Part shown: positions 1 to 29,417 of the stretch, in pieces
Layout of the letters: each line of letters starts with the position of its first letter
How positions within the stretch are numbered: the stretch's first letter is position 1
Origin: Defluviitaleaceae bacterium
GTDB taxonomy: Bacteria > Bacillota > Clostridia > Lachnospirales > WRAX01
Assembly (NCBI GenBank): GCA_009781625.1
Contig: WQVI01000003.1
Coordinates: forward strand, 1-44,327
Length of the DNA stretch: 44,327 nt
Reading direction: 5' to 3'
The notes under the pieces: generated by a model
Told to the model about the DNA's origin: nothing
The model's database searches: none
Seen by the model: only the letters and a program-made list of their open reading frames with translations
Translations under genes and position numbers: made by a program

Positions 1-67
1 AAGATGTATAATGGATACAAGCAGACAATAGACTTGTATACAAAGCATATTGTGAGGAGAGTGAAAA

Positions 68-26363: not shown

Positions 26364-27506
26364 ATGATAACTTTTGGGAGAACGGCGGCCGTGGTGAGCT
26401 CTGCCGCCATTGCAAACAATATTGGCGTTGTTAGGAAAATGATTGCGCCCAAGACGCGCATAATGGCCGTTGTAAAGGCTAATGGCTATGGCCATGGTAT
26501 TTACGAGGTGTCTAAAGCGGCTGTAAACGCCGGGGCGGACTGGCTGGGCGTTGCCACCGTGATGGAAGGCGTGTTTTTGCGCCGCCTTAATATAATGGCT
26601 CCCATCTTGGTGCTTAGCCCAACTTTTGAGGAAGAATATGAAAACCTCATCCTTAACAACCTTACATCCACAATTTTTAGCCTTGAAACGGCGAAAAAGA
26701 TGGCCCATGTGGCGGGATATCTGGAGAGGCCAGCGAAGGTGCATATCAAGATAGACACAGGGATGAACCGCGTTGGATATACCGTTGCCAATGGCGAAGC
26801 AGAGGCCGTGGCGGCTGAAATTGCTGAAATTTCACGCTTGGAGGGCATTATTCTTGATGGCATATATTCCCATCTCGCAACGTCGGATTCTGACGCTGCT
26901 TTCGCACAAGAACAATTTCGCCGCTTCATGCATATAATAGGGGTATTGGAAAAAATCGGTCTACATATTCCTATGAAACATATTTCAAATTCTGGCGCAA
27001 TTTTGGGATTTCCGGAATTTAATCTGGACATGGTGCGTGCAGGTGTTTTGACATATGGTCTTGCGCCAAATTCGCTGCACGAAGGAGCCTTAGAGCTTGC
27101 GCGCCTAGGCTTTTTGCCTGCGCTTACGCTGAAAAGCCGCGTTGCCCATGTAAAAACCGTTAAAAAAGGCCAAAGCGTGGGCTATTCTCGTAATTTCCTT
27201 GCAGACAAGGATATGCGCGTGGCCACCATGCCTGTTGGCTACGGTGATGGCCTTTCGCGCCATCTAAGCAATTGCGGCCGCGTGCTGATAAACGGTGCTT
27301 TCTGCAATATCATCGGCAATGTTTGCATGGACCAAACCATGATAGATGTGACGCATATTGATGCAAAGCTGCGCGATGATGTTATCATCATCGGCCAAAG
27401 CGGTGATAAGCGCATTTGGGCCGAGGATGTAGCGGCCTGGCAAAAGTCTATTAACTACGAAGTGGCCACGTCAATTTCTGAAAGAGTTGCCAGATTTTAT
27501 GTATAG
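26364..27506 (+). CDS. alr: Alanine racemase
   Basis: AVVKANGYGHG, HIKIDTGMNR, VGYGDG, GNVCMDQ. Confidence 0.97.
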   Translation: MITFGRTAAVVSSAAIANNIGVVRKMIAPKTRIMAVVKANGYGHGIYEVSKAAVNAGADWLGVATVMEGVFLRRLNIMAPILVLSPTFEEEYENLILNNLTSTIFSLETAKKMAHVAGYLERPAKVHIKIDTGMNRVGYTVANGEAEAVAAEIAEISRLEGIILDGIYSHLATSDSDAAFAQEQFRRFMHIIGVLEKIGLHIPMKHISNSGAILGFPEFNLDMVRAGVLTYGLAPNSLHEGALELARLGFLPALTLKSRVAHVKTVKKGQSVGYSRNFLADKDMRVATMPVGYGDGLSRHLSNCGRVLINGAFCNIIGNVCMDQTMIDVTHIDAKLRDDVIIIGQSGDKRIWAEDVAAWQKSINYEVATSISERVARFYV

Positions 27507-27530
27507 TTGAACGCCGCAAGGTCAATAATA
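27501..27530 (+). promoter_or_regulatory. SigF/SigG-like promoter upstream of mazF
   Basis: GTATA-15-GTCAATAATA (also GTATA-18-AATAATA). Confidence 0.4.
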
Positions 27531-27578
27531 AATATGTAGCCCAAAATCCCGAATTATTCCGGTTTGGAGAGTGAGGAC

Positions 27579-27929
27579 ATGTTGGTAAAACGTGGCGACA
27601 TATTTTATGCAGACCTTAGCCCCGTCATAGGCAGCGAGCAGGGCGGCATCAGGCCCGTGCTTATTGTACAAAACGATGTGGGCAACAAATATAGCCCCAC
27701 CATCATCTGCGCGGCCATAACAAGCCAGATAGGCAAGGCAAAACTGCCCACACATATTGAGATAGACTGCGCAAAGGCGACTTTGGTAAAGGATTCTGTA
27801 GTCCTGCTGGAGCAAGTGCGCACTGTGGACAAAAAACGCCTGAGAGAAAAGATATGCCATCTGGATGACGCCTTTATGAGCAGAGTGGACAGAGCCCTGC
27901 GTGTAAGTTTCGGACTTGTAAATACATAG
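27579..27929 (+). CDS. mazF: PemK/MazF family endoribonuclease (EndoA)
   Basis: [41 protein letters not shown]; follows alr. Confidence 0.96.
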
Positions 27930-27954
27930 GCAGGGGAAATAGCTGATAACCAAA

Positions 27955-27985
27955 AACCACCGACAAATTCGGTGGTTAATTTTTT
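27955..27985 (+). terminator. Intrinsic terminator after mazF
   Basis: aaccaccga-caaat-tcggtggtt followed by a T run. Confidence 0.75.
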
Positions 27986-27994
27986 GCAAATATG

Positions 27995-28023
27995 TTGACA
28001 TTGGATAATTATGGTGATATAAT
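27995..28023 (+). promoter_or_regulatory. Consensus sigma-A promoter for the small ORF
   Basis: TTGACA-17-TATAAT with extended TG. Confidence 0.85.
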
Positions 28024-28044
28024 ATGCTTGCAAGATTGTTTAGG

Positions 28045-28118
28045 GAAAAAGGAATACGCTTGTCCAGCCTCACAAGCGTACCACGACAGGCGTATTCCTC
28101 CCAAGCAATTAAGCCCGT
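28045..28118 (-). ncRNA. Predicted ~73-nt cis-antisense RNA
   Basis: Own promoter at 28125-28153; ends in 14-bp stem GGAATACGCCTGTC/GACAAGCGTATTCC (1 mismatch) followed by TTTTT; ends estimated. Confidence 0.6.
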
Positions 28119-28124
28119 GAGAAG

Positions 28125-28153
28125 ATTGTATCTCACCTGGGCTTAATTGTCAA
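28125..28153 (-). promoter_or_regulatory. Antisense sigma-A promoter
   Basis: TTGACA-17-TACAAT on the minus strand. Confidence 0.7.
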
Positions 28154-28181
28154 GCCGCAAAAAGAGGGGGTGAGATTTTTT

Positions 28182-28370
28182 ATGGTCAAAAGAAAGCCGT
28201 CGCCCCCTAGTGGTTTTGCCGTTAACAGAAAGCTTGAGGCTATTTTAGAAGAAGAGCTTCAAAAGAGACTTAAAGATGATAGCAAAAACAACAAAGTGAC
28301 ATCAAAAGAAAAGGTAGAAGCGAAAAAAGCAGAAGATGACGAAGATTTTTTCATACCTGTGCTGTTTTAA
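28182..28370 (+). CDS. Small charged hypothetical protein (62 aa)
   Basis: GAGGGGGTGA RBS, own promoter, downstream terminator. Confidence 0.7.
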   Translation: MVKRKPSPPSGFAVNRKLEAILEEELQKRLKDDSKNNKVTSKEKVEAKKAEDDEDFFIPVLF

Positions 28371-28373
28371 TTA

Positions 28374-28404
28374 AAAAGGGGCGGACTTATGTGGCGCCTC
28401 TTTT
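28374..28404 (+). terminator. Probable intrinsic terminator
   Basis: aaaaggggcg...cgcctctttt. Confidence 0.55.
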
Positions 28405-28412
28405 CTGTTACC

Positions 28413-28441
28413 TTGACAAAACTGAGGAATTAATATACAAT
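28413..28441 (+). promoter_or_regulatory. sigma-A promoter
   Basis: TTGACA-17-TACAAT. Confidence 0.7.
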
Positions 28442-28472
28442 TTTTTTGGTACTTGATGGGGGATGGATTAAA

Positions 28473-29417
28473 ATGGAGATAAAAATTGCACAGCTGGAAA
28501 TACCGCAAAACAAGCGGCTTATCTGCATCAGTGACGTTCACGGCGAGATGGAATTGCTTATTAAGTTACTGGACAGGGTCGAATTTTGTAGTGATGATAT
28601 ATTGGTTTTGCTGGGTGATGTGTATTTGAAAGGCAGCCGATGCCATGCGTGCCTGAAATATGTTATGGAGCTATCCGCGCAGCCCAATGTGCATGTTTTG
28701 CGTGGAAACTGCGATTGGCTGGGCGAGGACTATCTTGACGAGGACGACAAAGCCTGGCTTGAGGCCCTGCCCCATATCATCGAAAGTGAGGATTTCATTT
28801 TTGTACACGCGGGCATAAAGTCCATGAACTTACAGGAGCAAGACCCTTTGTTTTGTATGCGAAACGACGCATTTTTGGAAAATTACGATGGTCCTGCCTT
28901 TGAAAAATGGGTGATGGTGGGTCATTGGCCTAATAGCAACTATTGCCACGAGGTGGGTTGCAACGGCCCCATCATCAATGAGGAAAAGCGCATAATTGCC
29001 ATTGATGGCGGCAATGTGGTGAAAGAGGGTGGGCAGCTAAACGCCTTTATCCTAGAGGATGATGAATTTTGGTGGGATTCTGTGGATAAATTCTACACGG
29101 CCTTTGTGGGCCAAGCTCAAGAGGGCAGTTGCGGCACATTAAACATCACTTGGACAGACCGTTTTATTGAGATTATAGAAGCAGGAGAAGAATTTAGCGT
29201 GGTGCGCCATGTAGCCAGCGGCAAGGCTTTGTATGTGCCAACCAATAAAATTTGGCAGGATAGTGATGGCAACAACTGCATTGGCGCTATGGCCACCGAC
29301 CATTGGCTGAAAGTTTATGAAGGCGATATCATCTCCGTGATTGAGGTATTTTCAGATAGGATGTTTGTGAAACGAGACGGAATAATGGGTTGGGTATGGC
29401 CTGATGATATAATGTAG
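28473..29417 (+). CDS. Metallophosphoesterase with C-terminal SH3-like region
   Basis: SDVHG, LGD, RGNCD, VHAG, GHW, IDGG motifs. Confidence 0.88.
   Translation: MEIKIAQLEIPQNKRLICISDVHGEMELLIKLLDRVEFCSDDILVLLGDVYLKGSRCHACLKYVMELSAQPNVHVLRGNCDWLGEDYLDEDDKAWLEALPHIIESEDFIFVHAGIKSMNLQEQDPLFCMRNDAFLENYDGPAFEKWVMVGHWPNSNYCHEVGCNGPIINEEKRIIAIDGGNVVKEGGQLNAFILEDDEFWWDSVDKFYTAFVGQAQEGSCGTLNITWTDRFIEIIEAGEEFSVVRHVASGKALYVPTNKIWQDSDGNNCIGAMATDHWLKVYEGDIISVIEVFSDRMFVKRDGIMGWVWPDDIM

Follow-up and report, generated by a model that had tools for sequence, protein, structure and literature searches.

The control of an mRNA leader by a countertranscript is a textbook device of plasmid replication and of a few single loci. 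The attenuators of pT181 and pIP501 share the same design, pAMbeta1 is grouped with pIP501, and orthogonal regulator parts have been engineered from pT181. Short antisense RNAs that overlap the 5' part of their message are also familiar from type I toxin-antitoxin (TA) loci such as hok/sok, SymE/SymR and AapA/IsoA. Here, we analyze a 44,327-nt stretch of DNA from a Defluviitaleaceae bacterium (GenBank assembly GCA_009781625.1, contig WQVI01000003.1, positions 1 to 44,327 of the forward strand; hereafter the window), in which a segment beyond an orphan mazF gene carries two facing promoters, a folded leader and an open reading frame (ORF) for a 62-aa protein. This segment belongs to a real, lineage-specific, multicopy sense/antisense leader unit. 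We consider it probable that positions 27995-28404 are one copy of a lineage-restricted, chromosomal family of expression-control cassettes that are under countertranscript control and stand ahead of unrelated genes.

The RNAIII/RNAII system of pIP501 combines a strong sense promoter with a convergent antisense promoter inside the leader (pII and pIII); its short, structured antisense RNA leaves the ribosome-binding site free, and the leader has alternative folds, one of which ends at a U-run immediately before the start codon (PMC4981023). The cassette shares this arrangement, with a predicted antisense RNA of ~73 nt as against 136 nt for pIP501 (PMC4981023). It differs from pIP501 and pT181 in being chromosomal, in being present in 9 to at least 25 copies in each of five genomes and in having diverged, mutually specific stems; furthermore, it serves genes other than those of replication proteins, has no CopR-like repressor gene alongside, and termination within its leader is predicted. 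The window copy is flanked on both sides by chromosomal genes (alr and mazF upstream, a metallophosphoesterase gene and an RNase R-like ORF downstream). The prgQ/prgX region of pCF10 in Enterococcus faecalis, with its RNAs Anti-Q and Qs, likewise has convergent promoters, overlapping transcripts and a small RNA that blocks expression of the other strand (PMC3181467); that pair, however, controls one conjugation operon and involves a pheromone-sensing repressor, whereas the cassette is stand-alone, repeated and has no linked protein regulator. RnaG of Shigella flexneri, described as chromosome- or virulence-plasmid-borne, is a cis-antisense RNA from a strong convergent promoter that acts on icsA through an intrinsic terminator in the nascent leader together with transcriptional interference (PMC2879508); unlike the cassette, it is a single Gram-negative locus that serves one large virulence gene, and the two have no similarity in sequence or structure. 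Finally, highly similar promoter regions before unrelated genes of one genome are known as reused or "mobile" promoters (PMC3575422), but the cassette reuses a whole device (two promoters, two hairpins, a Shine-Dalgarno (SD) sequence and a spacer) that is kept by structure while its sequence drifts. Having no sequence or Rfam similarity to them, the cassette is not a member of the pIP501, pT181, pCF10 or RnaG families, and no paper describing it was found in the limited library of literature that was searched. The first-pass annotation of this DNA had likened the layout to both type I TA and plasmid copy-control loci; of the two, the likeness to plasmid countertranscript attenuators is the more probable, and the small hydrophobic toxin typical of a type I TA locus is missing.

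The window copy is made up of the following parts.

27955..27977, plus strand: terminator-like hairpin and T-run 3' of mazF, the left edge of the unit.
27995-28023, plus strand: sense promoter TTGACA-17-TATAAT with an extended TG, 12/12 in the promoter scan.
28046..28050, minus strand: A5 on the plus strand, the putative U-run that terminates the antisense RNA (from the sequence and the terminator scan).
28051..28098, minus strand: hairpin 1, GGAATACGCTTGTC / GACAGGCGTATTCC, at which the antisense RNA is taken to undergo intrinsic termination; it also folds in the sense leader.
28046..28118, minus strand: predicted antisense RNA of ~73 nt, with its likely start 7 nt past the -10 element.
28106..28149, plus strand: hairpin 2 of the sense leader, with outer stem 28106-28116/28139-28149, inner stem GTGAGA/TCTCAC and a loop that contains the antisense -10 element.
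28153-28125, minus strand: antisense promoter TTGACA-17-TACAAT, 11/12, with the -35 element at 28153-28148 and the -10 element TACAAT at 28130-28125.
28131..28137, plus strand: anti-SD segment TCTCACC, in the 3' arm of hairpin 2.
28164..28181, plus strand: ribosome-binding site GAGGGGGTGAGA, then T6 (28176-28181) abutting the ATG.
28182..28370, plus strand: ORF of the charged 62-aa protein, whose ends MxKRKPSP and DDEDFFxPVLF are conserved.
28374..28404, plus strand: post-ORF terminator hairpin followed by UUUUCU (-14.5 kcal/mol, z -3.6).

A scan of both strands of 27400-28600 returned eight promoter-like sites against 2.1 +/- 1.4 per shuffle (50 shuffles), and the two promoters that had been placed here at first sight, a perfect sense one and a convergent one, are confirmed at 12/12 and 11/12, both being kept across copies. 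The antisense -10 element lies inside the loop of hairpin 2 and the -35 element immediately 3' of it. The sense RNA would start near 28030, with a leader of ~150 nt. The proposal that a ~73-nt antisense RNA ends in a stem and U5 also stands, since a terminator-like stem is predicted at 28082..28053 on the minus strand, followed by CCTTTTT. Both putative RNAs are unusually well folded: the leader (28030-28190) reaches -58.8 kcal/mol (z -5.41) and the antisense (28118->28045) -29.5 kcal/mol (z -4.33), in each case with 0/200 shuffles as good. The inverted repeats 28050-28064/28085-28099 are 93% complementary and 28106-28116/28139-28149 are 100% complementary; folded alone, 28111-28182 gives hairpin 2 (-23.5 kcal/mol). 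The switch-like pairings ascribed earlier to this leader are all present in its sequence. Thus, TCTCAC (28131-28136) is complementary to GTGAGA (28117-28122) or, as TCTCACC, to GGTGAGA (28169-28175), and in the sequence from 28131 on the latter pairing forms directly 5' of T6 and the ATG; TACGCTTGT (28055-28063) is complementary to ACAAGCGTA (28072-28080) or to ACAGGCGTA (28086-28094). The first choice recurs in most of the copies that carry an ORF. The second, in the 5' arm of hairpin 1, is strong in the window copy (-14.3 kcal/mol) and is a property of this copy only; as a family feature it was rejected, with a mean of -6.3 against -6.6 kcal/mol for shuffled loops and values of -9 or better in 6/50 copies.

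The DNA between 27930 and 28420 matches three further places in its own genome. The match on C19 includes a paralogous 62-aa ORF, and those on C1 and C54 are confined to the interval that begins with the sense -35 element and ends at the start codon. A covariance model (R1) built from these four copies (C3/C19, C1 and C54) found 66 matches in 7 of 20 genomes of the taxonomic family; 50 of the 66 were fetched and aligned, both by fitting to the model (A5) and with MAFFT (A7), three additional weak matches to the opposite strand of already-matched places having been dropped, and all counts of anatomy given below rest on these 50 copies. A core model of 111 positions (R2), made from the A7 alignment, located the element at 13 places in its own genome, which is 73% complete; 11 other genomes of the family were scanned, and 6 of them had matches, at 9, 11, 23, at least 25, 1 and 1 places. 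The E-values of both models are rough. R2 found nothing in 139 genomes from 33 other families of the order, nor in 150 further genomes of the class, so that, for the genomes sampled outside the family, the element was not found in those searched. Against Rfam release 15, no match in the whole window reached the gathering threshold, and the 11 sub-threshold matches in 27900-28480 (E 0.39-9.2) all fall far under the gathering scores. The check by Rfam and covariation that had been proposed for this leader gives no Rfam family and two hairpins that both covary across the 50 copies. Some copies with identical scores lie at the extreme ends of contigs (for example, G013:C4:4-116, C13:4-116 and C38:1-116; G018:C168:64-176 and C121:64-176); this suggests near-identical repeats that break assemblies, and true copy numbers are probably higher.

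Both promoters are conserved. The antisense promoter TTGACA-16..18-TANAAT matches at 12, 11, 10, 9 and 8 of 12 positions in 13, 26, 8, 2 and 1 copies, that is, at 11 or more in 39/50 and at 10 or more in 47/50, and its spacer measures 16-18 in 50/50. A sense promoter within 120 nt upstream scores 12/12 in 21 copies and 11/12 in 23 (at least 11 in 44/50). Nearly all copies have convergent near-consensus promoters, ~130 bp apart. The core measures 106-118 nt, and the bases TTGTCAA and ATTNTA are almost invariant. The stems have drifted in a compensated manner. In alignment A5, 87.8% of the cells are paired against 65.4% after shuffling, with 356 double-change cells against 109 and slid controls at 29-44%; in A7, the values are 92.5% against 74.0%, 162 against 45, and 26-48%. 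Since the copies are interrelated and the structure was derived from the same alignments, these shuffle statistics, and the permutation statistics below, are inflated; nonetheless, the covariation effect is large in spite of this relatedness and circularity, and in hairpin 1 all pairs covary.

The wobble pairs of the two hairpins tell which strand carries the folded RNA. Counted on the plus strand, hairpin 1 has 21 A-C appositions, each of which is a G-U pair on the minus strand, against 7 G-U, whereas the outer stem of hairpin 2 has 26 G-U against 7 A-C; alignment A5 gives the same picture for hairpin 1 but, because its outer columns are misaligned, an unclear one for hairpin 2. In 43/50 copies, hairpin 1 folds more stably on the minus strand than on the plus strand (-24.4 vs -21.5 kcal/mol); at least six A's occupy the 10 nt preceding it on the plus strand in 38/50, and no T's follow it. 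The most likely role of hairpin 1 is therefore that of an intrinsic terminator for the antisense RNA. Hairpin 2 is an element of the sense leader; the antisense RNA, whose start lies within this hairpin, is unable to form it. The comparison shows that hairpin 1 has been shaped by selection on a minus-strand RNA and hairpin 2 by selection on a plus-strand RNA. The antisense RNA is thus argued from its promoter, its terminator and this strand-specific pattern, and the existence of the family, with both strands under RNA-level selection, is well supported by comparative analysis. Within the window's own genome, the 78 nt covered by the antisense RNA share a median of 8 consecutive identical bases between copies (the maximum, 36, is reached by the paralogues C37/C113), which should make every antisense RNA specific to the leader of its own copy. 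In many copies (C37, C113, C36, C21, C65; G018/G019), a further stem-loop, for example GGCAATGTTTGCC or CCCGCA..TGCGGG, lies 3' of the sense promoter and 5' of hairpin 1 and may serve to stabilise the 5' end; in the window copy it is absent and hairpin 1 is extended instead.

The genes behind these leaders are a mixed collection. An ORF of 38-497 aa stands at the expected place in 36/50 copies; in the window's own genome, small ORFs follow 7/13 copies but not the other 6/13, of which C97 is one. Pfam was searched with 28 of the 35 ORFs that reach 40 aa; the 62-aa pair and five obvious paralogues were set aside. MazE_antitoxin/AbrB-type domains (PF04014) were present in 5 at E <= 0.01 (3 above the curated cut-off) and Cu_amine_oxidN1 in 2 (proteins of 220-236 aa); 14 had no match and the rest weak matches only. 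Even the three types of cargo behind the four most similar leaders (C3/C19, C1 and C54) have no significant mutual similarity (E 0.22, 0.33 and none). It is because the other copies carry such unrelated cargo that we view the cassette as a portable regulator and not as a partner of mazF. The C-terminal AKKAEDDEDFFIPVL of the 62-aa protein (28340-28367) resembles the N-terminal AKNERSDDDFLSRPAL of the 54-aa C54 cargo (L028) at 7/16 identical positions, which is not significant (E 0.33) and could be a shared short docking motif or chance. At C97:2773-2948, a hairpin and T-run follow the sense leader directly, with no ORF, and at C36:16004-16160 there is a hairpin and again no ORF; such copies may have decayed, or may be cargo-free pairs of sense and antisense RNA.

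A switch between two leader folds is plausible. Of the 36 copies with an ORF, 31 can form a helix that ends at the T-run, between the SD sequence and the 3' arm of hairpin 2, which lies just 3' of the antisense -10 element; the remaining 5 lack a T-run. This anti-SD matches the SD of its own copy better than those of other copies (mean duplex energy -6.57 vs -5.64 kcal/mol; 0/2000 permutations as good), as does the 5' arm of hairpin 2 the anti-SD (-6.12 vs -4.56 kcal/mol). A T5 or longer occurs in the last 10 nt before the ATG in 30/36 copies, compared with 21/809 SD-bearing ORFs of the genome. The refolding model is thus afforded partial support by comparison of the copies.

In the mechanism that we propose, the near-consensus sense promoter would yield an RNA with a ~150-nt leader, and the opposite-strand promoter within that leader a ~73-nt countertranscript that would terminate at hairpin 1 and its U-run. 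Without the countertranscript, hairpin 2 would fold first and sequester the anti-SD, so that the gene would be transcribed to its end and translated. A countertranscript paired with the nascent leader would reach as far as the outer 5' arm of hairpin 2 and open this hairpin; the released anti-SD would then pair with the ribosome-binding site in a helix ending at the T-run before the ATG, and would block translation and probably also transcription at the T-run. The mechanism would follow the logic of the replication attenuators of pIP501 and pT181.

A number of observations count against the proposal. When folding at equilibrium is repeated without the antisense-covered part, SD accessibility goes down in 12 copies, up in 7 and is unchanged in 17 of 36 (p 0.2), and the full-length minimum-energy fold of the window copy already pairs TCTCACC with GGTGAGA. 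Equilibrium folds show no consistent switch, and hence the switch would have to be kinetic, acting on nascent RNA. The closing helix is a measure of weak specificity, since 61% of arm-shuffled trials still give one, as against 34/36 observed copies, with an energy of -10.8 kcal/mol for the shuffled arms against -14.7 observed. The leader thus has mutually exclusive pairings and a T-run, with an equilibrium test that reveals no consistent shift and a weak control for specificity. An antisense RNA that begins where predicted would not cover GTGAGA, the inner 5' arm; the helix that ends at the T-run closes a long branched loop, unlike a textbook terminator; and both promoters look constitutive. 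No ORF, or one of <35 aa, follows 10/50 copies, and 4/50 run off their locus. The mutual relatedness of the copies means that the shuffle and permutation statistics overstate significance, and the two transcripts, the positions of their ends and any influence on expression are predictions.

An explanation that we regard as unlikely, but by no means negligible, accepts the sense/antisense pair and lets it act by collision or occlusion of promoters, or by RNase III cleavage of the ~70-bp duplex, with no refolding of hairpin 2 and SD. Facing near-consensus promoters at the spacing observed in nearly all copies, together with a predicted SD accessibility that does not change consistently, are what such a mechanism would lead one to expect, and pIP501, pCF10 and RnaG/icsA combine interference or RNase III with pairing (PMC4981023, PMC3181467, PMC2879508). 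It leaves unexplained, however, why hairpin 2 covaries on the sense strand, why the anti-SD tracks its own SD and why a T-run precedes the ATG. These mechanisms can, moreover, coexist with the refolding explanation.

It is improbable that the locus is a type I TA system in which the 62-aa protein is the toxin and the antisense RNA restrains it. The layout is indeed like that of hok/sok: a strong promoter for the sense strand, a short antisense RNA that overlaps the mRNA leader, a ribosome-binding site hidden by long-range pairing, a small ORF and several copies per genome. But type I toxins are usually <60 aa and hydrophobic or membrane-active, whereas the 62-aa product is highly charged, has no hydrophobic segment and, as the first-pass annotation had already remarked, is unlike typical hydrophobic toxins of this type. 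The cassette also precedes proteins of the AbrB/MazE fold, Cu_amine_oxidN1 proteins of 220-236 aa and proteins of up to 497 aa; over its full range of 38-497 aa the cargo is diverse, mostly made up of ordinary-looking or large proteins, and some copies are ORF-less. The suggestion of an undescribed TA type is therefore not sustained: the ORFs listed behind homologous leaders are diverse and mostly not toxin-like.

More doubtful still is that the leader is a riboswitch or a protein-binding element whose conserved RNA bases resemble an antisense promoter by chance. Selection on hairpin 2 in the sense strand and the near invariance of TTGTCAA and ATTNTA would agree with this; however, in 47/50 copies these conserved bases spell TTGACA-16..18-TANAAT on the minus strand, and a wobble hairpin that fits the minus strand, followed by a U-run, lies downstream of that promoter. 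The cargo has no common theme that would fit one ligand, and there is no Rfam match.

We give very little credence to the idea that the orphan MazF next door has its missing antitoxin, or a regulator, in the 62-aa protein. The mazF gene (27579-27929, PemK 3e-37) directly follows alr; in 26364-27929, the two are separated by 72 nt and no antitoxin-sized ORF lies between them, and the acidic tail of the 62-aa protein ends in hydrophobic residues, both of which would suit this idea. Nonetheless, in 80/80 other mazF loci (449 kb), R2 detected no cassette within 3 kb of mazF. Of these loci, 18/80, mostly from the closest relatives, likewise have an alr-sized ORF immediately before mazF and no antitoxin-sized ORF, and the orphan state of mazF is hence independent of the 62-aa gene; a short ORF lies upstream of mazF in 57/80. 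In two genomes of the same genus, similarity ends at about 27940, the end of mazF, and other genes follow, with no cassette. The paralogue on C19 lies 14 kb from a second PemK gene (113 aa, C19:14742-15289, minus strand) that has its own 79-aa MazE/AbrB-like ORF directly upstream, and a metagenome homologue is located beside ligA, so that mazF adjoins only 1/3 known homologues of the 62-aa protein, the window copy. This protein matches no MazE/AbrB or ribbon-helix-helix (RHH) family, as a member of a MazEF type II pair might, and is not conserved beside mazF. The link between cassette and MazF is an accident of position, and the notion that this locus explains the orphan MazF is to be corrected. 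An insertion of the cassette between mazF and the phosphoesterase gene was also considered and rejected: in two related loci, mazF is followed by ORFs of 313-316 aa that are no homologues of the phosphoesterase, and the same-genus synteny ends at mazF.

That the unit is a selfish repeat with no regulatory role, of the miniature inverted-repeat transposable element (MITE) or repetitive extragenic palindrome (REP) kind, is scarcely credible in spite of the several copies at contig ends in other genomes, because no terminal inverted repeats bracket it, its similarity spans exactly the sense -35 element to the start codon, its end coincides in every case with an SD and start codon or with a terminator, and diverged copies retain the promoters, the pairings and the place before SD and ATG.

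Whatever the role of its leader, the 62-aa ORF probably encodes a real, fast-evolving small protein. The C19 paralogue has 73% identity (pN/pS 0.47), and the N-terminal MxKRKPSP and C-terminal DD(E/D)DFFxPVLF are kept among the relatives. A HMMER search of 1.84 billion representatives returned three matches, namely the protein itself, the C19 paralogue and a 108-aa mis-called ORF with a 51-aa homologue inside it; the latter, on its metagenome contig beside ligA, has the same leader upstream and a terminator downstream. A word-index search found only the protein itself, a scan of metagenome proteins found no relatives, and no Pfam or NCBIfam family was matched; the predicted structure (Atlas) is of low confidence (pLDDT, predicted local distance difference test, 0.48) and gave no usable look-alike. 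Gene callers extend the leader in frame (..AREDIVSHLGLIVKPQKEGVRFF..) and fuse it onto the small ORF (P0003 / L158 1610-1936, minus strand). The same artefactual frame is open in C19, and database proteins of the 62-aa family may therefore be mis-annotated.

A chromosomal family with 9 to at least 25 diverged copies per genome, each before a different gene, would be a new use of countertranscript control. More tentatively, one may imagine that a single lineage, probably of termite-gut Defluviitaleaceae, evolved a self-contained, portable RNA gate that spread before dozens of unrelated genes, that its drifted copies are mutually orthogonal attenuators and that the opposed promoters could give each gene a bistable on/off switch. 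If this were true, the independent switches would generate cell-to-cell variety in regulators and surface proteins, and, each copy having drifted to its own stem sequences, the genome would be a natural set of mutually orthogonal antisense attenuators from which ready-made regulator parts could be drawn. The cassette would also give the databases an additional RNA family and would flag many small unannotated genes of an uncultured gut lineage. The asymmetry of the wobbles, with hairpin 1 favoring one strand and hairpin 2 the other, points from sequence alone to functional RNA from both strands, and the same test is transferable to other candidate antisense pairs.

Just past the terminator of the cassette, at 28413-28441 of the window, there is a third near-consensus promoter (TTGACA-17-TACAAT, 11/12) ahead of the metallophosphoesterase gene. 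In one genome of the same genus, the metallophosphoesterase gene overlaps the stop of the gene upstream, with no gap for a promoter.

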